Of a DNA stretch of 64,000 nt, positions 12,485-61,474 are shown piece after piece. The translations under genes were made by a program, and so were the position numbers. The stretch comes from Candidatus Pacebacteria bacterium CG2_30_36_39 (GTDB taxonomy: Bacteria > Patescibacteriota > Microgenomatia > UBA1400 > PJMF01): NCBI GenBank assembly GCA_001873435.1, contig MNZB01000003.1, forward strand, positions 6,427 to 70,426, read 5' to 3'. How positions within the stretch are numbered: the stretch's first letter is position 1; the number at the start of each line of letters is the position of its first letter. Under the pieces are notes generated by a model that saw only the letters and a list, made by a program, of their open reading frames with translations, was not told the origin of the DNA and ran no database searches.

Positions 12485-13510
12485 ATGCTGCGATATCTGG
12501 ACAAATTAAGTGCAACTCTAGCCATTGATCTTGGAACCGAAACAGTTAGAGTTTGGGAAAAAGGCAAAGGTTTAATTGGCGAATACCCAAGTTATTTAGC
12601 TATTGATACCCAATCAAAAAGAATTCTCGCTCATGGAAAAGATGCTTACGATATGCGAGGAAGAGTGGCTGCTAACGTTACTTTATTAAGACCTTTTCAA
12701 AAAGCTCAACTATGGGATCGCAAAGTAGCTCAGGCATTTCTAAAAGTTGTTTTAAGAGATGCTTTAAAAAAGAGTCTTTTAAGTCCAACAATATTATTTA
12801 GTATTCCAGCAAGTTTAAAACCAGCTATTGAAGCAGAAACAGTAGAAATGGGTTATTCATTGGGAGCTAGAGAGGTTTTTACTGTTGTTCAGCCACTAGC
12901 TGCGGCTATTGGAGCTGGTATGCCAGTAGCTGATTCATCTGGGGGATTTATTATGCAGTTGGGAGCTGGTATTTATGAGGCTGGCGTAATTTCTCTTGGC
13001 ACTTTGGTTACCAGTGAACATTCATTTGAAGCTGGTGATGATTTTGAACAAGCCATGCAAAACTTTTTACAACAAAAATATCAGGTCACGATTAGTCATG
13101 AAACAGCAAAAATGTTGATTCATAAACTGGCAACTTTGCATGATGGACATCCTGGATCAGTGCTAATAACTGGTAAAGACGAAAAAACTACTGCTCCCAA
13201 AGAATTGCAGATTAATACAGAACATGTCCGTGATTTCATTGAGGAAAGAGCTCAGGTTATGGTGCAATTAGTCAAGAAATTGCTTAGTAAGGTTCCGGCA
13301 GAACTAACTGGAGATGTGGTTGATAAAGGTTTGTTGCTTGCTGGTGGTGGTGCTTTATTAACTGGTCTTGATAGCTATTTAGTACCGAAACTTGGTATTC
13401 CAGTTTCAATAGTTGATGATCCTGAGAGGGCGGTAGTGCGTGGAATGGGTACAATTCTTGATCATCTTGATGAATTTAAACGAAGTTTGGGCTATCGAGG
13501 TGAACAATAA
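12485..13510 (+). CDS. mreB: MreB-like actin-family protein (divergent).
   Basis: Phosphate-1 motif AIDLGTETVRV and adenosine motif LLLAGGGALLTGL are conserved. The C-terminal PVSIVDDPERAVVRGMG matches MreB. The phosphate-2 motif is altered (QLGAGIYEAG instead of DIGGGTT). Confidence 0.6.
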   Translation: MLRYLDKLSATLAIDLGTETVRVWEKGKGLIGEYPSYLAIDTQSKRILAHGKDAYDMRGRVAANVTLLRPFQKAQLWDRKVAQAFLKVVLRDALKKSLLSPTILFSIPASLKPAIEAETVEMGYSLGAREVFTVVQPLAAAIGAGMPVADSSGGFIMQLGAGIYEAGVISLGTLVTSEHSFEAGDDFEQAMQNFLQQKYQVTISHETAKMLIHKLATLHDGHPGSVLITGKDEKTTAPKELQINTEHVRDFIEERAQVMVQLVKKLLSKVPAELTGDVVDKGLLLAGGGALLTGLDSYLVPKLGIPVSIVDDPERAVVRGMGTILDHLDEFKRSLGYRGEQ

Positions 13511-13935: not shown

Positions 13936-14232
13936 GTGTTTATGGAAAATGGTGTATCAGGAGCTAAATTATTGGCTTTGCTAGAAGAACACGCAAAAGA
14001 AGTAGAAGTTTCTGGCGAGAAAAAAGGTGGCGACATTGGTCCAGAGGCTTTGGAGATTGTTTTATCTGACGCAGAAGAATTGGGTCCAGAAAAATTGCAG
14101 AGAATGGCAGATCTAATTAATTCAATGGCTAGAAAAGATGGTATGGCTGGTCAGCCATATTTAATGATGATTTTAAGATCAATTCAGCCAAAGGAAAAAA
14201 AGGTAGAAGAGCCCTACGACCCTTTTGCTTAA
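13936..14232 (+). CDS. Hypothetical acidic small protein.
   Basis: 98 aa with a good SD (ggaaggaaag). Confidence 0.35.
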   Translation: MFMENGVSGAKLLALLEEHAKEVEVSGEKKGGDIGPEALEIVLSDAEELGPEKLQRMADLINSMARKDGMAGQPYLMMILRSIQPKEKKVEEPYDPFA

Positions 14233-14236
14233 AAAT

Positions 14237-15694
14237 TTATAGCACAAGGTTTTTTACTGCTTCTTTAAATTGTTCACCTCTATCTTGGTAATCTTTAAAC
14301 ATACCAAAACTAGCGCTAGCTGGGCTAAGTATTATGGTGCCCTTATTTGTTGGTTGTTTTTGTAGATATTTTTCCATCAAGTACTGAGCTTTTCCTACAG
14401 CTTCTATCATGGATTCGGCAAACTCAATTTTTACTAATTCTTCTGATATTTCTTCTTCATTCAACAGTGGCTCTAGTTTTTTAAGTTCCATTTCCAATCT
14501 TTTACCGGTTGGTTGAAAAAGTATTAACCCAACCACATTTTTGTCTAAAATTGTTTTTGCCAATTCAACAAAATCTTGCTGTCTTTCATAGCCACCGGCA
14601 ATTAATACCACTGGTCCATTAAAACTTTCCAAGGCTTTAATGGCGGCATCTGGCATAGTTGAAAGCGAGTCGTCAAAATAGGAGGTATTCTTTCTTTCAA
14701 GCACAAATTCTAGGCGATGAGGAAGTGACTTAAAACTTTCCAAACTATTTCTAATTTGTTCAGCAGAAAGATTAAAGATAGTTCCTACAATAATTGCTGG
14801 CATAGCATTTAGAACATTGTGCTCGCCACGTAACGGTAGTTTATTAATGGGTAAAATCTCTTCGGTTCTTTGCAACTGATCCTTGCGTAAAATAATGCCA
14901 TTGCGAACGAAAACAACAGCGTCAGGGCCTTCTGTGGTGGAAAAACGCAGATGTTTGCCAGCACTAAGTTGGGCAATCATTGACGAACCTTTAAATTCTG
15001 GATTAAAAATTACAAAATCATTAGCTGATTGAAATTGAGTGATTGGCATTTTTGCTTGTTGGTAACTAGTGGTATCAGCATAATAATCCAGGTGCTCACT
15101 AGTGACGTTTTGCACTACTGCAATATGTGGGCTAATAGTCAAAGTTTCTAATTGGTGACTCGATAGTTCGCAAACCACTAAAGAATCTGAGTTTATTTCT
15201 GGTAAAAGATCTAAAGCTGGTTGGCCAATATTACCGACTAGTTGTGTATTTAAATCATTTGTTTGTAAAACATGATGGATGAGTGCTGAGGTGGTACTTT
15301 TACCTTTGGTGCCAGTGATGCCGATAGTTATTCCTGAGCATAATTCAAAAAAAAGTTGTAGATGAGAAGTAAGTTTACCCCCACTTCTAATAGCTTCGGC
15401 AATTTCTGGAGTAGTTTGAGGTATACCAGGACTCTTAAAAATTAATTTATAAGCACTAAGTTTTGATAAATGATCTGGACCAAAGTGAAGTGATAAATTT
15501 TTGTCATTATTTAATATTTCTTGTTGTTGAGCAGAGAATTTTTCTAATGGTTTGCGATCAGCTAGTCCTAGTTGTAAGTTTGGAAATTTTTTTCTTAAAA
15601 AAAGATAGGTTGACCAACCTTCGCGACCCATTCCAAGGATTATTGTTGGAGTAGTTTCTATTACTTTGAGAAGGCTAGAATCTTTGGTGTTCAT
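14237..15694 (-). CDS. murD: UDP-N-acetylmuramoyl-L-alanine--glutamate ligase (MurD family).
   Basis: Mur ligase ATP-binding loop GITGTKGKSTTSALIHHVL with N-terminal MurD-like Rossmann region. It is translationally coupled to the upstream ORF by an ATGA overlap. Confidence 0.75.
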   Translation of the reverse strand: MNTKDSSLLKVIETTPTIILGMGREGWSTYLFLRKKFPNLQLGLADRKPLEKFSAQQQEILNNDKNLSLHFGPDHLSKLSAYKLIFKSPGIPQTTPEIAEAIRSGGKLTSHLQLFFELCSGITIGITGTKGKSTTSALIHHVLQTNDLNTQLVGNIGQPALDLLPEINSDSLVVCELSSHQLETLTISPHIAVVQNVTSEHLDYYADTTSYQQAKMPITQFQSANDFVIFNPEFKGSSMIAQLSAGKHLRFSTTEGPDAVVFVRNGIILRKDQLQRTEEILPINKLPLRGEHNVLNAMPAIIVGTIFNLSAEQIRNSLESFKSLPHRLEFVLERKNTSYFDDSLSTMPDAAIKALESFNGPVVLIAGGYERQQDFVELAKTILDKNVVGLILFQPTGKRLEMELKKLEPLLNEEEISEELVKIEFAESMIEAVGKAQYLMEKYLQKQPTNKGTIILSPASASFGMFKDYQDRGEQFKEAVKNLVL

Positions 15695-17130
15695 GTTAAA
15701 TCCTTACTATCTTCACAGAGTTGTTGGGCTGCAGTTTGGATAATTTTAGTTAATTTTTCATTTAGGTTATGTTGATTATTCCAGAAGCATAGTAGTTGTT
15801 TGGCAGTTTTTTCTAAGTCAGGTATATTTTGTAGGTTATCTTTCCAAACTTTATCTAGAACTATTGGCAATTTTTGGTTTGGGTGGAGTTTTTGGAATTT
15901 TTTAATGCTCAAGAAGAAAGCAGCCTGAGTTTCTTCATGGGTACCAACACACTCAAAAGGTTTATTTGCATCACGTCCCATTAGAGCATTGGCTTCTTTT
16001 ACCATGCTTTCTTTTGCAAATAAATTTTCTGGGAAGATTGGTCCTATTAGTTCTTGTTCAGTTAAAAAAGGGTAGAGAACGGTGAAAACAAAAAGACATT
16101 TTGGACATTCACAGCACCAAATATTTTGTTGTTGTCCTCGATTGCAGCTACGAAAAGTAGCGTGAAATTGTTTTGCTTGGGCAAATAATCCGGCGATTTG
16201 TAATTCTGTTAATGGTCTCAAGATAGAAAGGTATTCAGGGTTATTGTTTTCTGGCTTATTTATAAATTCAGAGACATATTTTCTAAATTTATTTTCAAAA
16301 TCAAAAGTTTTGGAGTATTGATGATTAACGATTGTGCCTTTATATGGCACATTACCTTCATTGGCGGAGAATTCATTGGCAACCAAAATTTGGTTATGAC
16401 CAGCTAAGAAAGCTAATAGACTAGATTCAAAAGCCAATCTGGCGCTAAAGGGAGTATGGCCATTGAGATAACCAGCTTTGTTTAGAGCAAATAACTGGGG
16501 ATCAAAAATTCTTTCAATGGTAAAAACTTTTTTAGCTAGGCTTTTACTTGCCAAGTTTTGTGCTGCTGGTGATTGGGGGAAGCTGAGGAGAATGTCGTAA
16601 GTTAATCCTGCTTCATCTAGCAGGTTGAGTAGTAAGCCTGAATCTTTGCCTCCGCCCACAGGAATCAAATATGAGGAAGAGTTTGTTTCCTTGGGAAGAA
16701 GCTCTTTTTTATCAGGAATATTTTTGATTTCCGTTTTGTTTATAAATTTTACAAAATTTGTTGGTCTAAAGTCGATTTGATTGGTGTAAAAAAACTCTCC
16801 CATGCTATCGATTAAAACTTCTTGCCACCAAGAGCATTGATCTGGATTTAGTTCTCCAGCTTGGATGATTATTTCTGGTGAAGCTGCTGTTTTCCAATAG
16901 CTGAAAAGCTCGATTAAGCCAAGGTGAAAGATCCAATTTTCTAGTTGTTGGAGATCGATTTGTGCAAGTTGTTTTTGAGTGAGAGGTGAAAAAATGATTT
17001 TTGGTTGAAAGACTATGTCTGGTTCCAAGAGAAAATCAAAAACAACCCTCAATGAGTCATCTTCAATTTTCCAGTTATAACCTCGGTAAACAAAGCGAGG
17101 GTGTTTTTTTCTCAAGGCAGCAACTGTCAT
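15691..17130 (-). CDS. PP-loop (adenine-nucleotide alpha-hydrolase-like) protein with a Cys cluster; a candidate MurL-type ATP-dependent epimerase.
   Basis: SGGxDS-like PP-loop (PVGGGKDSGLLLNLL) and a QueC-like Cys cluster (SCNRG...WCCECPKC). It has a 4-nt overlap with murD. The MurL assignment is inference. Confidence 0.45.
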   Translation of the reverse strand: MTVAALRKKHPRFVYRGYNWKIEDDSLRVVFDFLLEPDIVFQPKIIFSPLTQKQLAQIDLQQLENWIFHLGLIELFSYWKTAASPEIIIQAGELNPDQCSWWQEVLIDSMGEFFYTNQIDFRPTNFVKFINKTEIKNIPDKKELLPKETNSSSYLIPVGGGKDSGLLLNLLDEAGLTYDILLSFPQSPAAQNLASKSLAKKVFTIERIFDPQLFALNKAGYLNGHTPFSARLAFESSLLAFLAGHNQILVANEFSANEGNVPYKGTIVNHQYSKTFDFENKFRKYVSEFINKPENNNPEYLSILRPLTELQIAGLFAQAKQFHATFRSCNRGQQQNIWCCECPKCLFVFTVLYPFLTEQELIGPIFPENLFAKESMVKEANALMGRDANKPFECVGTHEETQAAFFLSIKKFQKLHPNQKLPIVLDKVWKDNLQNIPDLEKTAKQLLCFWNNQHNLNEKLTKIIQTAAQQLCEDSKDLT

Positions 17131-17209
17131 AATTCCATTATACCCAAGATCTATTAAATAGTCTGTTGGTATGAAGGAAGTTATTTCGTTTAAAAACTAG
17201 GTTTTTATG

Positions 17210-18489: not shown

Positions 18490-18765
18490 CTACTCTTCTT
18501 CGTTTTCAGTTGGGTTGACACCTAAAAGCCAAAGTACAGCTTCCTTTTTGTATCTACGATCTCCGCGAGAGTTAATGCGGATAGCTGGAAGTTTGCCACG
18601 TTTACCCCAACGCTTGATGGTTAAAGGTGAAACTCTCAATAAATCTGCTACCTCACGCACTGTTAGGAGGTCTGGTAGATTATTGATGTCGAGCTTGGCA
18701 GCATCATTGGCTCGGCCAGTTTTTTTGTCTTCCATTTCGGAAACGATGGCAGCTGTATCAGTCAT
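18490..18765 (-). CDS. Excisionase/AlpA-family helix-turn-helix DNA-binding protein.
   Basis: HTH_17-like segment LTVREVADLLRVSPLTIKRWGKRGKLPAIRI in a 91-aa protein. Confidence 0.55.
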   Translation of the reverse strand: MTDTAAIVSEMEDKKTGRANDAAKLDINNLPDLLTVREVADLLRVSPLTIKRWGKRGKLPAIRINSRGDRRYKKEAVLWLLGVNPTENEEE

Positions 18766-20298: not shown

Positions 20299-20515
20299 AC
20301 AACGAATACCTTTATACTTAATTAATACCTTTAAAGTGCCGTTTCGCAAAGGCTTGTGGGAAATGTACAATGAGGGGAAAGAGAAAAACTAAAAAGCAAA
20401 ATTGTAATTCGTTTTTAAGTAGCTCTCCTCGGTGTGGCATTTCACCAGAATTTCTTCTGGACACACTGTCTTTGGAAACAGAAAGAAAATTATATCACGA
20501 AAAGGACAAACTGCA

Positions 20516-22483
20516 ATGTTCCAAAACAAGCATAGTAATTCGATATTGAATCGAGTTTTTGGATTTTTTTCTAGCCTTTTAATCTCATTATTATTTTTTG
20601 GTCAGATCCAGCCTGTCTTTGCGGAAGAAACCAAAGAATATTCTATTCAAGGAACTGATATTCAGGCAGAAGTCAGTCCAAGTGGTTCAATGGATGTAAT
20701 CGAGCAGCGAGTTTATAGTTTTACTGGAGATTATAGATTTGCTTATCAACGCATAGAGAAAAATCCAGATCAAAAAACAGCACCAGGCAGAGTAGAGCCA
20801 TATCAAATTAGAATCAAAGGTATTTGTGAAAAAGATTATTGCTACCGATTTGTTTACCCATCAGAGGTAAACATGACTGACCGTCGAGCAAATACACCAG
20901 GAACATATACAGTTATTCAAGATAATAATGAAGTTTATGTCCAATGGCATTTCAAAGCTATTAATGAAGCCAAGATTTTTACTATTCAATATGTTGTTGA
21001 TAATGCAGTCACCTTACATAGTGATATAGCAGAGATATATTGGCAATTTATTGGTAATAAATGGGAAGTACCTCAGAAATATGTGACGGTTAATGTTAAC
21101 TTGCCATATGGAATAAATGATAAAGATATTGTTGCTTGGGGGCATGGAGAATTAAAGGGTCAAGTTAGTATTCCAAATGCTCAAACAGTTAAATTTGCGG
21201 TTGATAAGGTTCGAAGTGGCAAGATGTTAGAAGCACGCATCTTGGTACCCAAAATGAGCTTTTATGATGGAGCACAAGGCCATTTTTCCAAAGCACAAAT
21301 AGAAGAGCAGGAGTCCAGTTTTATAGCAGAGACCAAAAAATGGTTAGATAGAAATTCTATTTTTGTAAACTTACAAAAGTTTTTAGTAGCTCTGGCCTGG
21401 ATTTTTGGAGCTCAAATATTATTTCGATATTTGTTTTTTGAGTATCAAAGAATACCAAAGGCCAATCAGGCAGATCGGGTTTGGGAGCCACCAAGTAATT
21501 TAGAACCGGCAATTGTTGAGTTATTGGTTAGGCGCACTCGTTCTCTTTCAACAAAATCTTTTACAGCTACTGCTTTATCTTTAGTACAACAAAAGTTTGT
21601 CAAAATTATTCGCAGTGATGATAAGAAAGGTTTTTTCGTCAAAAAATATGAATATGGCTTTGTTAAGGCAAAAGAACCAAAAAAACTAACGGTATTGCAG
21701 CAGGATGTTTATGATTATCTTTTTGATAAAGCAGCTAAAAAAGAAGATATTTTATGGTTCAAAGATTTAATTAAATATAATAAGGCTCATCCATCTGGAG
21801 CACATAATTTCTTTAAGAGTTTAGAAAAATCGGCTTTCCACCAGGGAGAAAAATTGGATTTAATAGCCAAGCCAGTTAAAGGTGGCATATTTAAAAAAAT
21901 AGCACCGTTGTTAATTGTTTATTTGTTATCAATTGGTAGCATAGTTTTTCAAGTTCTATGGATAGGTGATGAATATTTTCAACCAGATGCCTTGTTGATA
22001 GCAGTTACTGGCTTATTCATTCCAATCATGTTGAGTTTTATAGCAATTATGAAATCGATCACAGGTTTTCGTTATACCGATAAGGGTCTATTGGAAACTG
22101 CTCAGTGGCGAGCTTTTAAAAAACACATGAATGATTATCGTAAAACCAAGGAATATCCAATTGACTCAGTAATTTTATGGGAGAAATATCTTGTGTATGG
22201 CACTCTTTTGGGAGTATCAGCTAAGGCATTAGCTCAGTTGCCTGTTAATTTTGATTTAAATGATCCGGCAGTAACAGGATATTGGGTGGGCTATAGTCAT
22301 GGTGGTGGTTCCACGGATTTTACAAATTCATTTAGTGGAGTTTCCGATTCTTTGTCATCGGTTTTACATTCATTTTCTACTAGTTCCACTCAGAGTTTCG
22401 GAGCTAGTGGAGCCGGGTCTTCTGGTGGATTCTCTGGCGGAGGCGGCGGTGGAGGTGGCGGCGGAGGTGGTGGAGCAGGTTAA
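20516..22483 (+). CDS. DUF2207-like membrane protein with a Gly/Ser-rich C-terminal tail.
   Basis: Signal/TM at the N-terminus, a large extracytoplasmic domain, then TM helices and a GGGGGGGGGGG tail typical of DUF2207 proteins. Start placed at Met29 of the ORF. Confidence 0.5.
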   Translation: MFQNKHSNSILNRVFGFFSSLLISLLFFGQIQPVFAEETKEYSIQGTDIQAEVSPSGSMDVIEQRVYSFTGDYRFAYQRIEKNPDQKTAPGRVEPYQIRIKGICEKDYCYRFVYPSEVNMTDRRANTPGTYTVIQDNNEVYVQWHFKAINEAKIFTIQYVVDNAVTLHSDIAEIYWQFIGNKWEVPQKYVTVNVNLPYGINDKDIVAWGHGELKGQVSIPNAQTVKFAVDKVRSGKMLEARILVPKMSFYDGAQGHFSKAQIEEQESSFIAETKKWLDRNSIFVNLQKFLVALAWIFGAQILFRYLFFEYQRIPKANQADRVWEPPSNLEPAIVELLVRRTRSLSTKSFTATALSLVQQKFVKIIRSDDKKGFFVKKYEYGFVKAKEPKKLTVLQQDVYDYLFDKAAKKEDILWFKDLIKYNKAHPSGAHNFFKSLEKSAFHQGEKLDLIAKPVKGGIFKKIAPLLIVYLLSIGSIVFQVLWIGDEYFQPDALLIAVTGLFIPIMLSFIAIMKSITGFRYTDKGLLETAQWRAFKKHMNDYRKTKEYPIDSVILWEKYLVYGTLLGVSAKALAQLPVNFDLNDPAVTGYWVGYSHGGGSTDFTNSFSGVSDSLSSVLHSFSTSSTQSFGASGAGSSGGFSGGGGGGGGGGGGGAG

Positions 22484-48681: not shown

Positions 48682-49569
48682 TTGCTAGGCTCTGGATGCA
48701 TGAGAAATTCGAATTTTTCTCGATTATCATTGGATTTTTTACATCAAGATCAAGTACTTTTTTGGCTTGAAGGTCGTTTTCTGCTGATGGTTGCTGGCAA
48801 GAAGAGAAAGCAATTGCTTTTAAAAGCTGACTCAGGCATTGCTGATGGTTTAATCGCTAATGAAGAAGCAGCTGTTAAGACAATTAGTGCTTTTTGTCAT
48901 GAAAATGAAATTAGATTCCAGAATTTATTTAAAATTCATCAAGCAATAATTTTTATTCCTACTAATAGCTCTCCAGTGGAGCAGTCTCTGATAAAAAGAG
49001 TTTTCAGTCAGGTTGGTTTTCGCCAAATTGAATTGAGACTTTATGCTACAGCCTTTAGAGCTTTTTTGGCTAAACAAGCATTTGAAAGGGGAATTTTTGT
49101 ATATATTGGCCAAGAAATTAGTGAAATAGGTGTTTTTTCCGATCGTGATCAACAAAGCTTTTCTATATATTTCTCTATTAAAGAAGCAATGGAAATAGTT
49201 ACTCATTTTTTTAGAGAAAAACATTTATTTGAAATATCGCCGGTTGTTGCCAATCAAGTATATGAAGAAATTGGTAAACATGGAGAAAAATTCTCCTTAA
49301 CTATAAGAGGGAGAGAAAGTAGAAGTAGGGAAATTGCCACGCACTCATTTTCTTTTAAAGAAATAGAGCCATTACATCAAGTTCTTAAGCGAAAAGTAGA
49401 AAAGGAATTGTTGAGTGTGATTGGAGATAAGTTATTTCGTGAGATTCAGCCAGATAAATGGGTAATTTTGGGTGATAATTTTTGGTTTAATAATTTGAAG
49501 TCACAAGCTGATAAAGCTTTGCAACTACAAACTGCTTTTGATTTAATGCAGGGAGTGGAATGGCTATGA
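48682..49569 (+). CDS. Degenerate MreB/actin-fold paralog directly upstream of mreC.
   Basis: Region-by-region similarity to MreB (KADSGIADGLIANEEAAV vs RGGVIADFEVTE; IFIPTNSSPVEQSLIKRVF...IELRLYATAFRAF vs VICVPVGITEVERRAV...FLIEEPMAAAIGA). Phosphate-1, phosphate-2 and adenosine motifs are all non-canonical. Confidence 0.35.
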   Translation: MLGSGCMRNSNFSRLSLDFLHQDQVLFWLEGRFLLMVAGKKRKQLLLKADSGIADGLIANEEAAVKTISAFCHENEIRFQNLFKIHQAIIFIPTNSSPVEQSLIKRVFSQVGFRQIELRLYATAFRAFLAKQAFERGIFVYIGQEISEIGVFSDRDQQSFSIYFSIKEAMEIVTHFFREKHLFEISPVVANQVYEEIGKHGEKFSLTIRGRESRSREIATHSFSFKEIEPLHQVLKRKVEKELLSVIGDKLFREIQPDKWVILGDNFWFNNLKSQADKALQLQTAFDLMQGVEWL

Positions 49570-50339
49570 CAAACAAATCACTTGATTTTTTTCGTTGGGA
49601 TCAAGTTTTGTTGATCGGTATTAGTGTGCTTTTGCTTGAAAGTGTTGGCTGGCTATTACCAGTTCAAAATTTAACATATGGATATGTTGTAAAACCAATG
49701 AAGCATTGGTGGGTGCAACAAAGTACCAAAGTTACTTCAACAGTTGGCCTTGTCTCGAAACTTTTTAATGCTGCTGCTCATATCCAAGATTTAGAATCTA
49801 GATTAGCAGACGCAGCTGCTTCATTAACTGAACTAGATTCATTGAAAACAGAAAATAAGGAACTTAGGTATTTATTGGAAAACACCGATCGTCCGCAGGG
49901 AAGAACTCTAATTACTAGACCGGTTGTTGCTTTTGCAAAACCAGCTGTCGCTGGAGGTTTAGATCTTCAACTAGAAAAAAATTCTTTAATTTTAAGTAGA
50001 GAAACTCTTTTGGGTCAAATTAGTGAAGTCGGTAATTTTGAATCACAAGTTACTCTTTTATATGAGAAAGAAGCCACTCCAATTTTGGCGGAAACTGACA
50101 CTGGAGTTCAAGGAATAGTTAGGGGAGACGGAAGAAAATTGTTATTTACTGAGGTAGCCAGAACAGCCAATTTAATAGTTGGTCAAAGAGTTATTACTGT
50201 TGGGCAACCTCAGGTAGAACAAGGAATTTTAATAGGTAAAATTGTTGCGATTGAGAATAATATGACAGCCTCTGTTCAAACGGCTGTTATTGAACAATAT
50301 GTTTCTTTTTATGAGAGCCCAGTGGTGGAGGTGAGATGA
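49560..50339 (+). CDS. mreC: Rod shape-determining protein MreC.
   Basis: N-terminal TM, a coiled coil (LESRLADAAASLTELDSLKTENKELRYLLE) and a C-terminal beta domain. Followed by mreD and PBP2. Confidence 0.65.
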   Translation: MAMTNKSLDFFRWDQVLLIGISVLLLESVGWLLPVQNLTYGYVVKPMKHWWVQQSTKVTSTVGLVSKLFNAAAHIQDLESRLADAAASLTELDSLKTENKELRYLLENTDRPQGRTLITRPVVAFAKPAVAGGLDLQLEKNSLILSRETLLGQISEVGNFESQVTLLYEKEATPILAETDTGVQGIVRGDGRKLLFTEVARTANLIVGQRVITVGQPQVEQGILIGKIVAIENNMTASVQTAVIEQYVSFYESPVVEVR

Positions 50340-50797
50340 AGAAATTTATTAATCTCAATCAAGATGATACTTTAACCCTATTTCAAAATTTTGTTTACTT
50401 CTTAATTTTATTGGTACTTCTTTCATTTGAAGCGAGCTTTGGCTTACCTTGGTTAAGTATTTATTTTTTTTATCAAGTTGCCATGAGACTAAATATCATT
50501 GGTTTTTGGACACTACTGCTTAGCTTTAGTTTATTGATATCCATTGCTTATCCACTTTCTATCTTTGTAAGTTTTGGTTTATTGATTATTTTATGGTGGG
50601 CAAAACAATATTTTTCTAGAACCAAATGGTTTGGTTTATATATTTTAATCATAACTGCGATGGCGTGGTTGGGTACAAATTTACAACTTTGGTTGGTAAT
50701 TTGGCAAAGTATTTTGAGCTTAATATTCCTTTTCATTCATCTTAGGGGAGTAATTTGGTGGCCAAGAACATGGAAAAACAACGAAAAAATTTATTAA
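50336..50797 (+). CDS. mreD: Rod shape-determining protein MreD (small polytopic membrane protein).
   Basis: 153 aa with 4-5 TM helices, 4-nt overlap with mreC, positioned between mreC and PBP2. Confidence 0.5.
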   Translation: MKKFINLNQDDTLTLFQNFVYFLILLVLLSFEASFGLPWLSIYFFYQVAMRLNIIGFWTLLLSFSLLISIAYPLSIFVSFGLLIILWWAKQYFSRTKWFGLYILIITAMAWLGTNLQLWLVIWQSILSLIFLFIHLRGVIWWPRTWKNNEKIY

Positions 50798-52632
50798 TAT
50801 TGATTTTTTTTAGTTTAATTAGCATGGCATTAGCTTTGTTAATAGCTAGGGCTGTTGATTTACAAGCTTTTCAAGGAGAGTTTTTTGCTAATATTTCCCA
50901 GAGAAACAGAAAATTTAGAGTAGAACTGCCGGCAGAAAGAGGAATCATCTCAGATCGTTTTGGAGATCCATTGGTGATTAATCAAAGATCATATTTTAAA
51001 GTTTTAGATCCTACAGCTCTTTATTCAAAACAGGAAGCATTGAGTAAGGAGCAAGCACTAGCTTTGGAAATCGAGGATCCTTTTCAAGTTAATTATGTTT
51101 TACAGCGCGTCTATTTGAGGCCTTTTTCCTTGGCGCATTCTCTAGGTTATGTCTCAGGTGTAACAGCTGATGATTTAGAAGAAAACCATCAATTAGAAAT
51201 GAGCGATGTTTTGGGCAGAGTTGGTTTGGAAGCATTTTTTGATGAATCTTTGCGTGGAACCGTGGGTTATAGAGAGTTTGAAATTAATGCCTTAGGAGAA
51301 AAGAGAAGTGAGGCTTTTAGAGTTGAGCCAAAACTTGGAAGAAGTGTTCAATCTTCATTGGATCCATATCTTTCTACAGTTGCTTGGAAAGCTATGGGAA
51401 ATAAAACTGGAGCTGTAGTTATTTTGGATGCAGATACTGGTAAAATTTTAAGTTTAATTAGTACTCCTTCTTTCAATAATAATTTATTTACTCCAACCTA
51501 CCAGCCAGATGAAAAACAACTAAAAACTGCAGAATTAAATACTGCTTTAGCTGATGAAAAAAAACTCTTTTTTAATCGAGCCATTAGCGGTCTTTATGCT
51601 CCTGGTTCAATTTTCAAGTTGGTTACGGCCATAGCTGGTTTGGAAGCGAATGCTTTTACTACCGAAACAACAGTTGATGATCAAGGAGTTCTTGATGTTG
51701 GTGAGTATCGTTATGCTAACTGGTATTACACCCAATATGGCAGAACTGAGGGTCTAATTTCATTGGTTAGAGCAATTGCTCGCAGTAATGATACTTATTT
51801 TTATAAAGCTGCCGAATTAGTTGGTGTTGATGCTTTGGCCCAGCAAGCTGAAGAGCTTGGTTTCGGTAAAAAAACAGGGGTTGAATTACCAGGGGAGAAG
51901 TCTGGTTTAGTACCCAATCCTACTTGGAAGGAAAAAAACATTGGCGAGCGATGGTTTTTGGGTAATACTTTTCATATGGGTATTGGCCAAGGAGATTTGT
52001 TGGTTACACCTCTACAGCAAGCTCAATTAGTTCAGGTCTTTGGTAATGGTGGAAAATTATGTAAGCCAAGTTTAATAGAAAATAATGGTCAATCAACTTG
52101 TAGCAGCATCGGTGTGAAAGACGAAAATTTAGCAGCTGTACAAGAAGGAATGATTCAGGCTTGTTCTCCAGGTGGGGTAGCTTTTCCATTTTTCCCTTGG
52201 AACCAACAGCATCTAGCTCAGTTATCTGCTGAAACTGTTTCTCCACAGCAACAAATTAATAATGGAGTAATAGCTTGTAAAACTGGGACTGCTGAGTTTG
52301 GAGCTGCTGACCAACGTGGTTATCGCAAAACTCATGCTTGGTTTGGAATGACTGTTGGCGGAGTAAAGAAGATGCTTGAGGAACAAACAAAAGTTTTGGG
52401 AGAAAATACCGCGCTTCAATCTCCAACAATTGATGAAAATTCTGAAGCAGAGCGAGATTTATCTGTTGAAAAAGCTAAATGGCTAGTTCTTTTGAAGAAA
52501 AACTCTTTTCCTAATACCATAGCGATTGTTGTTTTGGTTGAGAGTGATGAAGTTCAACCCTACCAAGAAGGTTCTAGAGATGCTGCTCCTGTCGCACTTG
52601 AAATTTGGAACTGGATGATGGGTTTAGAGTAA
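50755..52632 (+). CDS. mrdA: Penicillin-binding protein 2 (class B transpeptidase).
   Basis: SxxK (SIFK), SxN (SND) and KTG (KTGTA) motifs with an N-terminal TM and dimerisation domain. Confidence 0.8.
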   Translation: MVAKNMEKQRKNLLILIFFSLISMALALLIARAVDLQAFQGEFFANISQRNRKFRVELPAERGIISDRFGDPLVINQRSYFKVLDPTALYSKQEALSKEQALALEIEDPFQVNYVLQRVYLRPFSLAHSLGYVSGVTADDLEENHQLEMSDVLGRVGLEAFFDESLRGTVGYREFEINALGEKRSEAFRVEPKLGRSVQSSLDPYLSTVAWKAMGNKTGAVVILDADTGKILSLISTPSFNNNLFTPTYQPDEKQLKTAELNTALADEKKLFFNRAISGLYAPGSIFKLVTAIAGLEANAFTTETTVDDQGVLDVGEYRYANWYYTQYGRTEGLISLVRAIARSNDTYFYKAAELVGVDALAQQAEELGFGKKTGVELPGEKSGLVPNPTWKEKNIGERWFLGNTFHMGIGQGDLLVTPLQQAQLVQVFGNGGKLCKPSLIENNGQSTCSSIGVKDENLAAVQEGMIQACSPGGVAFPFFPWNQQHLAQLSAETVSPQQQINNGVIACKTGTAEFGAADQRGYRKTHAWFGMTVGGVKKMLEEQTKVLGENTALQSPTIDENSEAERDLSVEKAKWLVLLKKNSFPNTIAIVVLVESDEVQPYQEGSRDAAPVALEIWNWMMGLE

Positions 52633-60721: not shown

Positions 60722-61474
60722 ATGAAAGTCACTGCAATAAAAACTAAAGTTATTCAGCCTGGTGAAGATTTATTTAAATTTTTACATGAACATATTTCTA
60801 TTTTAGAAGAAAGATCGATAGTAGTAATTACTTCTAAAATCTTGAGTTTTGCCCAGAATAGATTTGCTCCAGCTATTGAAAAAACTAGAGAAGAAAAACA
60901 TGATTTAGTGCGAAGAGAAACTGATTTGTATTTAGATCCAAGTAAATCTAAATATGACATCATGATTACAATCAAGAATTCTTTATTGGCTGTTAATGCT
61001 GGTATTGATGAATCAAATTCTCCAGGTCAATATATTTTGTGGCCTGAAAATCTTCAAGAATTCACTAATCAAATTTGGCAGTTTTTACGCGAAACGTACA
61101 AAGTTAAAGATCTTGGTGTGATAATTACGGATAGCAAAACTATGCCGTTGCGTTGGGGAGTGACTGGTACTGCTGTATCTTATTGTGGTTTTAATCCACT
61201 GATTGATAAACGAGGTTTGACAGATATTTTTGGTCGGGAAATGAAGATGACTCAAATTCAAATTGCTGAAGCCATAGCTATTGCTGCGGTATTTGAAATG
61301 GGTGAGTCTAATGAACAACGTCCTCTGGCTATTGTAAATGATTTTCAACAAGCAATTGAGTTTCAAGATAGAGTTCCTGATGAGGAAGAAATTAAGGCTT
61401 TAAGCATAGATCCTGAGGATGATGTTTATGCTCCTCTTTTATTAAGTGTTCCTTGGAAAAAAGGGGGTAAATAG
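60722..61474 (+). CDS. CofE-like (F420-0:gamma-glutamyl ligase family) protein.
   Basis: VVITSKILSFAQNR, AVNAGIDESN, ITDSKTMPLRWGVTGTAVSYCG and AIAIAAVFEMGES match the CofE-fold family. Confidence 0.5.
   Translation: MKVTAIKTKVIQPGEDLFKFLHEHISILEERSIVVITSKILSFAQNRFAPAIEKTREEKHDLVRRETDLYLDPSKSKYDIMITIKNSLLAVNAGIDESNSPGQYILWPENLQEFTNQIWQFLRETYKVKDLGVIITDSKTMPLRWGVTGTAVSYCGFNPLIDKRGLTDIFGREMKMTQIQIAEAIAIAAVFEMGESNEQRPLAIVNDFQQAIEFQDRVPDEEEIKALSIDPEDDVYAPLLLSVPWKKGGK

Follow-up and report, generated by a model that had tools for sequence, protein, structure and literature searches.

A candidate murL-murD2 gene pair in a Patescibacteria genome and its relatives in other phyla

The coupled genes and their two proteins

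We analysed a stretch of 64,000 nucleotides (64 kb; G+C content about 35%) from the genome of Candidatus Pacebacteria bacterium CG2_30_36_39, contig MNZB01000003.1, which is called the window below. Two genes with ATG start codons lie together on its minus strand: an open reading frame (ORF) for a protein of 479 amino acids at positions 15691–17130 and, downstream of it, the gene of a MurD-type ligase of 485 amino acids at positions 14237–15694. The initial annotation had placed both ORFs at these positions and had suggested the first as a candidate MurL-type enzyme, the partner of the ligase MurD2 in an alternative route to the D-glutamate (D-Glu) of the peptidoglycan stem peptide. This suggestion is now supported by MurL family models, invariant residues, the predicted fold, the residue signature of the ligase and the linkage of the two genes, and the 479-aa ORF is called murL in what follows.

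The two genes overlap by the four nucleotides ATGA (15691–15694, minus strand), as had been noticed before; the murD ATG (15694–15692) shares bases with the TGA stop codon of murL (15693–15691). The junction reads ...TTAACATGAACA in its short form and TTTAACATGAACA in a longer one. This arrangement suggests translational coupling, and an AAGGA element within the 3′ end of murL, 6 nt 5′ of the murD ATG (15701–15705, minus strand), may act as the Shine-Dalgarno sequence of the second gene. The statement on coupling uses the ATGA of the window alone; the TTGA and GTGA junctions at other loci may not be true starts.

In the NCBIfam search the 479-aa protein had a single match, the model NF041275 'MurL_Xanthmoales' (E = 4.3e-66, 223 bits), in which residues 12–407 were aligned with positions 11–392 of the 447 in the model. 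The Pfam domains PF26299 (MurL_N) and PF26298 (MurL_epimerase_C) are recorded for exactly this protein; they are absent from the Pfam version used for our scan of the window and were taken from a precomputed annotation. An identical protein is encoded in the MAG (metagenome-assembled genome) GCA_009992265.1, on contig JAACVW010000004.1. MurL was therefore the only significant family in the profile search that the initial annotation had proposed. The best match was not an unrelated PP-loop family, the outcome named there as contrary to the idea: the Pfam QueC model (PF06508) gave 17.2 bits (E = 0.0037), under its gathering threshold of 22 bits. This weak match keeps the PP-loop and the cysteine cluster in register (residues 159–346 against positions 7–200 of the 210 in the model). 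The fold and the motif arrangement of the protein are QueC-like, yet it is not a QueC.

An AlphaFold2 (AF2) model of the protein, built from a 66-sequence alignment, had a mean predicted local distance difference test (pLDDT) value of 94.9 and a predicted template modelling score (pTM) of 0.93. The top matches of the model in a Foldseek comparison with the PDB were two chains of QatC (9y01_B and 9y02_B; probability 1.0, about 465 aligned columns), with modest TM-scores of 0.39–0.45; among the further QatC/Cap9 matches, 9nto_B reached a TM-score of 0.65 when normalised to target length. The next matches, TtuA, argininosuccinate synthase (ArgG), Cap9 and MnmA, are likewise PP-loop ATP pyrophosphatases; these nearest solved structures, QatC included, belong to enzymes that adenylate carboxylates or nucleobases. 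QatC is an anti-phage protein, the QueC-like subunit of the QatABCD system, and the solved structure nearest to whole-length MurL is thus QatC, not QueC itself. Judging from the model, the MurL_N domain may have a counterpart in QueC-like defence proteins. A MurL structure was found neither by a sequence search of the PDB nor by a literature search. A profile of the family aligned its GGKDS region to the PP-loop of TtuA ('ILVAVSGGKDSAVT', E = 5.5e-5), with weaker matches to GMP synthase and MnmA. The PP-loop, QueC-like ATP pyrophosphatase fold, which had been proposed from the motifs, is borne out by the model, the Foldseek matches and the TtuA profile match. We consider this assignment of the MurL core, as modelled, to be correct, and it would provide a structural rationale for the ATP-to-AMP chemistry reported for the epimerase.

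Both motifs quoted in the initial annotation are present. The PP-loop VGGGKDSG (residues 158–165; 16636–16659, minus strand), a variant of SGGxDS, is predicted from its conservation and from the TtuA profile to bind the ATP alpha-phosphate or pyrophosphate (PPi). In the AF2 model it follows strand E154–157 at the start of a Rossmann-like core. In distant members of the family the motif is the canonical SGGKDS, in the window protein GGGKDS. The cluster SC329N-x8-C339-x2-C342-x2-C345 (SCNRGQQQNIWCCECPKC, residues 328–345; 16096–16149, minus strand) is, by conservation and by its register with QueC, a predicted structural Zn site; QueC has a four-Cys Zn site. A third motif, NKPFECVGTHEE (15931–15966, minus strand), contains the invariant Cys394 and Glu400, and its conservation makes it a candidate source of a catalytic acid/base or thioester residue.

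Conservation was evaluated on 370–381 homologs per column, drawn from 120 loci of a genome scan (see below) and 263 database proteins. The 120 loci were chosen through the Cys-cluster motif, so that C329, N330, W338, C339, C342, K344 and C345 are invariant in them by construction; neither the 263 database proteins nor the Cys394 column were selected in this way. The residues G160, G161, D163, C329, C339, C342, C345 and C394 were conserved in 99.7–100% of the homologs and K162 in 98.9%. The four cysteines of the cluster were invariant in 381/381 sequences (in the 120 scanned loci partly as a result of their selection), C394 was present in 378/378 and E400 in 375/377. Because the quoted PP-loop and Cys motifs are conserved in 98.9–100% of the homologs, they are not chance features. 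All residues of 96–100% conservation are kept in the window protein (G160, G161, K162, D163, H225, E253, N269, H270, Q271, K274, R305, C329, C339, C342, C345, C394 and E400), and with them every family-invariant motif: the PP-loop GGKDS, H225, E253, NHQxxK, R305, the four cysteines and ECVGT.

If the first protein is a MurL, which isomer of glutamate would its neighbour add? The ligase has the Pfam domains MurD-like_N, Mur_ligase_M and Mur_ligase_C and scores 316 bits with TIGR01087, over the cutoff of 212 bits. Since a ligase with the MurD2 residue signature passes this cutoff, the sequence models do not separate MurD from MurD2. The residues that do so are described for Xanthomonas oryzae (Xoo). 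Asp182, Lys348, Ala414 and Leu416 of Escherichia coli MurD are equivalent to Glu197, Arg358, Pro433 and Phe435 of X. oryzae MurD2; the MurD2 double mutant E197D/R358K changes its specificity from L-Glu to D-Glu, mutation of the Pro433 and Phe435 positions brings no such change, and E. coli MurD K319T gains acceptance of L-Glu (PMC8788868).

We aligned the window ligase in MAFFT with the E. coli MurD sequence (residues 53–436) taken from the PDB alignment. Glu200, followed by His201 (15092–15097, minus strand), stands at E. coli Asp182, the L-Glu determinant Glu197 of X. oryzae, and Arg371 in GGYERQQD (14573–14596, minus strand) replaces Lys348, as Arg358 does in MurD2 (equivalences from PMC8788868). 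In DSLST (14657–14671, minus strand) Lys319 is lost and Leu344 has taken its place. The comparison of the substrate pocket that the initial annotation had proposed thus gave both MurD2 determinants and no Lys319. At the secondary positions, Ala461 (E. coli Ala414, Xoo Pro433) is MurD-like and Phe463 (E. coli Leu416, Xoo Phe435) is MurD2-like. The catalytic and Glu-binding residues are kept, namely K132, H201 (His183), K215 (carbamyl-Lys198), T346 (Thr321) and S462 (Ser415), with Tyr469 for Phe422, and so is the P-loop GTKGKST. The MurDs in the PDB that are annotated as D-Glu ligases have at positions 182/319/348 the residues D/K/K (E. coli; 8dp2 with 7sy9; 7sir) or T/K/R (3lk7); all four keep Lys319 and lack Glu182.

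Linkage, fusions and ligase signature across phyla

The pair is not unusual in the databases. The family is large: the protein has matches in at least 7,952 clusters at 90% identity, and an exhaustive HMMER search gave 2,413 clusters at 50% identity, 1,042 of them at E ≤ 1e-30. Some members are already named MurL, as the epimerase, by JGI and NCBI.

GTDB species genomes were scanned with a high-GC form of the Cys-cluster motif, which gave at least 120 loci; the counts that follow hold among the matches listed. A MurL homolog is encoded in 117 of the 120. They belong to Oscillospiraceae, Lachnospiraceae, Bacteroidales, Acidobacteriota, Binatia, Rokubacteria, Methylomirabilia, Omnitrophota, Saccharibacteria and other Patescibacteria, Bdellovibrionales, Proteobacteria, Actinomycetota and Chloroflexi-labelled metagenome-assembled genomes (MAGs). 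No loci of Xanthomonadales or Micromonosporaceae are among them, though the scan aimed at their pairs. The gene order could be assessed in the 102 loci not cut by the edge of an 8-kb block. In 78 of these murD lies directly downstream on the same strand, eight have a single fused MurL/MurD ORF (adjoining and fused together, 86/102), and the remaining 16 have no MurD in the locus.

Several loci without MurD carry MurL genes that score 420–596 bits, and tblastn was included in the search for the ligase in their 8-kb loci. They were found in Bacteroidales (L012, L059, L063, L090), Oscillospiraceae (L008, L042, L082) and Terriglobia (L037). In other genomes of those same orders murL and murD are adjacent or fused, and the partner ligase of these genes presumably lies elsewhere, perhaps in the division and cell wall (dcw) cluster.

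We also detected lower-scoring MurL-like paralogs (184–243 bits with the hidden Markov model (HMM) of the family) in Azoarcus, Saccharimonadales and Thermoanaerobaculia MAGs (L039:2972–4390, L067:2255–3541, L104:2959–4317 and L119:1–1134). Their loop is NGGGKD[T/G/S], all cysteines and ECVGT are kept, and no MurD follows downstream. In L039 a Mur_ligase_M/C gene lies directly upstream, and L067 has a divergent RimK-like ATP-grasp neighbour. These paralogs may form a sister subfamily with a different ligase partner. Three murL-murD2 contigs come from bins labelled Escherichia coli (L072, CAVIFG010000033.1), Faecalibacterium prausnitzii (L036) and Butyrivibrio crossotus (L108); the 'E. coli' contig is probably mis-binned, its score resembling those of Oscillospiraceae loci.

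Gene fusion is frequent in the family. Among the best 150 of the 50%-identity representatives we found 31 fusions, 29 in the order MurL-MurD and two in the order MurD-MurL. The nearest, P0121 (996 aa), has 61% identity to the window MurL and the same E/L/R/A/F signature as the window ligase. Because it is identical in three separate NCBI MAGs, with a context matching that of the window (WecG, fusion, MreB, PEGA), it is not an assembly artefact. Two other fusions have different partners. P0176 (791 aa) and P0148 (932 aa) represent a MurB-MurL fusion (FAD_binding_4, MurB_C and MurL) and a Mur-ligase-MurL fusion with a PF01225 N-terminal domain that is not MurD-like. The existence of such proteins ties MurL further to the cytoplasmic synthesis of peptidoglycan precursors.

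The ligase signature was then read in 118 MurDs, 88 of them linked to MurL in the listed loci and 30 of them MurD domains of fusions. Glu182 was found in 80/87 linked ligases and in 27/30 fusion domains (107/117 together). Lys319 was found in none of 85 and none of 30 (0/115), the linked ligases having Ile in 77 cases, Leu in seven and Ala in one. Arg348 was found in 82/82 and 28/29 (110/111). The pattern holds phylum by phylum, including Bacillota and Proteobacteria, whose canonical PDB MurDs differ; the signature therefore tracks MurL linkage, not phylogeny.

Surroundings of the pair in the window

A Pfam scan of about 55 ORFs in the window detected no further Mur ligase, MraY, MurG or FtsW. 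It also detected no murI (Asp_Glu_race) and no dat (Aminotran_4), a result that covers these 64 kb only. Because no other genes of dcw or Mur type are present, the murD gene lies outside any dcw cluster within the visible 64 kb, in agreement with the initial annotation.

The closest relatives of the window are assemblies of Patescibacteria, the candidate phyla radiation (CPR). On one contig of a Patescibacteria MAG (L001) the gene order is conserved across about 20 kb at 68–75% nucleotide identity: L10/L12, a small helix-turn-helix (HTH) protein, WecG, MurL, MurD, two small ORFs, MreB and a PEGA protein. The neighbour of murL, a gene of the WecG/TagA glycosyltransferase family, is transcribed divergently. 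The intergenic region of 363 bp between them has 28% G+C and contains a TATAAT hexamer (17137–17142, minus strand) 6 nt 5′ of the murL ATG (17130), which could conceivably be the −10 box of a leaderless or short-leader bicistronic transcript. A consensus promoter scan did not report this hexamer, and promoter-like sites overall were not above chance against a shuffled background. At the other end of the pair, directly after the murD stop codon, a hairpin followed by a T-run (14207–14224, minus strand) is tentatively terminator-like; such sites were not in excess over shuffled sequence (three found, 2.4 ± 1.6 expected).

Some other genes of the window deserve a mention. The small HTH_17/MerR-like protein of 91 amino acids (18490–18765, minus strand) matches the PADLOC model 'mad1' with E = 6e-11. 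It keeps the same syntenic position in the relatives L001, L123 and L126, and for this reason looks like a resident regulator, not a defence gene. A bona fide MreB (264 bits) is encoded close to murD at 12485–13510 on the plus strand, and a cluster at 48682–52632 (plus strand) contains a divergent MreB-like protein (35 bits), MreC, a 153-aa ORF and a transpeptidase of the penicillin-binding protein 2 (PBP2) type; this CPR genome thus has two actin-like rod-shape proteins. The DUF2207 membrane protein at 20432–22483 (plus strand) has a long Gly/Ser-rich terminal tail, including 13 Gly in a row. At 60722–61474 (plus strand) a gene of the CofE, or F420-0:gamma-glutamyl ligase, family (PF01996) lies directly 5′ of the genes for dihydrofolate reductase (DHFR) and dUTPase. 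It also adjoins thymidylate synthase and dCMP deaminase, an unexpected position in a nucleotide/folate cluster of a CPR genome.

Proposed route, its alternatives and comparison with known systems

The source study of the X. oryzae route is said to be that of Feng et al. 2017. According to reviews (PMC8788868, PMC5808125), MurL (XOO_1319) and MurD2 (XOO_1320) form there an alternative D-Glu route, in which MurL needs ATP and Mg2+, makes AMP and works in the L-to-D direction only. On the strength of the sequences and the model we consider it highly probable that the window carries a translationally coupled murL-murD2 operon, which would make the D-Glu of the stem peptide without free D-glutamate. 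The ligase would add L-Glu, a preference suggested by Glu200 and Arg371 together with the loss of the Lys319 equivalent (Leu344). MurL would then adenylate the alpha-carboxylate of this Glu through its PP-loop, and on adenylation the alpha-proton would become acidic. Invariant residues would take off the proton and return it on the opposite face, inverting C-alpha. The most attractive candidate for the base is Cys394 in KPFECVGT, with His225, His270, Lys274 and Glu253 as possible alternatives. Hydrolysis of the adenylate would render the reaction irreversible, and the product would pass into the ordinary MurE/MurF pathway. The four cysteines most likely hold a structural Zn, as they do in QueC.

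Several points weigh against this interpretation. Activity is demonstrated only for the enzymes of X. oryzae, Micromonospora and Salinispora (PMC8788868), with no Patescibacteria homolog among them, and the metal and the catalytic base named above are what we infer for MurL. It is possible that murI, dat or a second canonical murD lies outside the 64 kb examined. To map the MurD2 residues we used E. coli numbering and the equivalences of the review rather than a direct alignment to XOO_1320. Only one of the two secondary MurD2 positions matches (Phe463 does, whereas Ala461 is not Pro); mutation of these positions is reported to leave the specificity unchanged (PMC8788868). MurL-linked MurDs vary at both, the first being A, S or P and the second Y or F. 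Finally, the score of 223 bits is far under the equivalog cutoff of NF041275, which is 700 bits. Ten homologs from Actinomycetota, Proteobacteria, Bacillota, Bacteroidota, Acidobacteriota and CPR, that is every non-Xanthomonadales homolog tested, scored 135–260 bits with this model. The cutoff therefore marks the Xanthomonadales lineage and not demonstrably a function.

The evidence can also be read in other ways. The ligase might be an ordinary D-Glu MurD, fed by murI or dat elsewhere in the genome, while the MurL homolog modifies the Glu alpha-carboxylate otherwise, through amidation to iso-glutamine as by MurT/GatD or through another acyl transfer. PP-loop and QueC-like enzymes commonly hand their adenylate to ammonia, an amine or another nucleophile, and QatC, Cap9 and ArgG are among the Foldseek neighbours; our view of the genome spans 64 kb, and low-scoring MurL-like paralogs with no adjoining MurD do exist (L039, L067, L104). 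We nevertheless regard this explanation as unlikely, given that the ligase has the L-Glu determinants and lacks Lys319, that no glutaminase or amidotransferase partner adjoins the pair, that the window MurL groups with MurD-linked and fused members (61% identity to P0121) and not with the low-scoring paralogs, and that the sole characterised family member is an epimerase. Less credible still is a role of the pair in making a non-canonical stem peptide or some different UDP-sugar-peptide polymer, in which the ligase would add a residue other than Glu for the MurL homolog to epimerise. The WecG/TagA-family glycosyltransferase among the neighbours might be seen in this light, but it is transcribed divergently from the pair. 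The cell walls of Patescibacteria are indeed poorly characterised; the Glu-binding residues T346 (Thr321), S462 (Ser415) and Tyr469 (Phe422) are kept, however, and the signature is the same as in MurL-linked MurDs of phyla with ordinary peptidoglycan.

An incidental neighbourhood of murD and a PP-loop enzyme that modifies tRNA or nucleosides (of the QueC, TilS, TtuA or MnmA type) would account for the weak Pfam QueC match (E = 0.0037) and for the structural and profile similarity to TtuA and MnmA. This similarity is limited to the shared PP-loop core, the 17.2 bits for QueC being under the 22-bit cutoff, whereas the MurL model matches with E = 4e-66 over about 400 residues. We detected no RNA-binding domain in the 479-aa protein, and MurL adjoins or is fused with MurD in 86/102 assessable loci, across phyla. 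We hold this explanation to be extremely improbable, an RNA-modifying role of the QueC/TilS/TtuA type being effectively ruled out by the MurL models, the linkage and the fusions. A defence role of the QatC type was also considered and rejected; PADLOC gave no match for either protein, and the gene context speaks against it as well.

The preferred explanation, an L-Glu-adding MurD2 followed by the epimerase MurL, most likely involves no new kind of system. Pair and pathway are already known, and databases have models of the family, so that the locus would be a further example in Patescibacteria; a literature search found no paper on MurL or MurD2 in Patescibacteria/CPR. If correct, it would explain how a small-genome CPR bacterium can obtain the essential D-Glu of its peptidoglycan with no need of a glutamate racemase, and it would correct the likely automatic annotation of the window ligase as a D-glutamate ligase. 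The PP-loop/QueC-like assignment would give a structural basis for the ATP-to-AMP epimerisation, called mechanistically unclear by its discoverers, and points to candidate residues. The trio of E182, non-K319 and R348 may serve as a simple sequence test for annotating MurD chirality. This trio and the PP-loop assignment are by-products that reach beyond the locus, as are the frequent fusions and the breadth of the family, with its roughly 2,400 clusters at 50% identity.

Published reviews describe the pathway in 'relatively few genera' (Xanthomonadales, a few Alphaproteobacteria and rare actinomycetes) and hence as a narrow-spectrum drug target. The present data do not agree with this narrow distribution: homologs that share the linkage and the ligase signature are spread over many phyla, and abundant gut commensals are among their hosts. 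A wider proposal can be put forward, for which we see the chances as about even. MurD2/MurL would be a major and ancient route to stem-peptide D-Glu. Many Patescibacteria would use it as their standard route, and it would be common among Bacillota and Bacteroidales of gut and rumen, in Acidobacteriota, Binatia and other phyla, often as one bifunctional MurL-MurD polypeptide. As a PP-loop/Zn enzyme of QueC-like type, MurL would invert its substrate via an acyl-adenylate, possibly with Cys394 as base or thioester carrier, and the trio Glu182/non-Lys319/Arg348 would predict MurD chirality.

Compared with the X. oryzae system, the window pair shares homology to MurL over about 400 residues, a MurL gene that adjoins a MurD-type ligase, Glu and Arg at the two L-Glu positions proven by mutagenesis, and a predicted PP-loop fold that fits the reported ATP-to-AMP chemistry. 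It differs in its host, which belongs to the Patescibacteria (CPR) and not to Xanthomonadales, Alphaproteobacteria or rare actinomycetes, in its score (223 against the 700-bit cutoff), in having Ala at the Pro433 equivalent, and in being known here from sequence alone. The ATGA gene overlap is a feature of the window pair, and in its near relatives the two genes are fused.

QueC, QatC and Cap9 are PP-loop ATP pyrophosphatases that adenylate a carboxylate. As in these proteins, the PP-loop of the window MurL opens a Rossmann-like core, with a C-x(n)-C-x2-C-x2-C cluster about 170 residues further on. In contrast, its similarity to them stays under the family thresholds, and two parts set it apart, the additional MurL_N domain at the N-terminus and, at the C-terminus, a helical region that carries the invariant ECVGT. 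The MurL substrate would be UDP-muramyl dipeptide instead of the 7-carboxy-7-deazaguanine of QueC, and the adenylate would be hydrolysed after stereoinversion rather than handed to an amine.

The canonical route combines MurD with MurI (or dat). At position 182 its PDB MurDs show Asp or Thr and at 319 Lys, where the window ligase has Glu and Leu, and the window murD is not in a dcw cluster within the window. In the MurL route chirality would be fixed only once the residue is ligated, and an extra ATP would be spent. MurT/GatD, which amidates the alpha-carboxylate of the stem D-Glu on lipid II, acts like MurL on the alpha-carboxylate of the second stem residue, uses ATP, and pairs a Mur-ligase-fold protein with a second enzyme. 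There, however, MurT itself is the Mur-ligase-like activator, working via an acyl-phosphate, its partner is a glutaminase, and no PP-loop protein takes part; the outcome is amidation for MurT/GatD and would be epimerisation for MurL.

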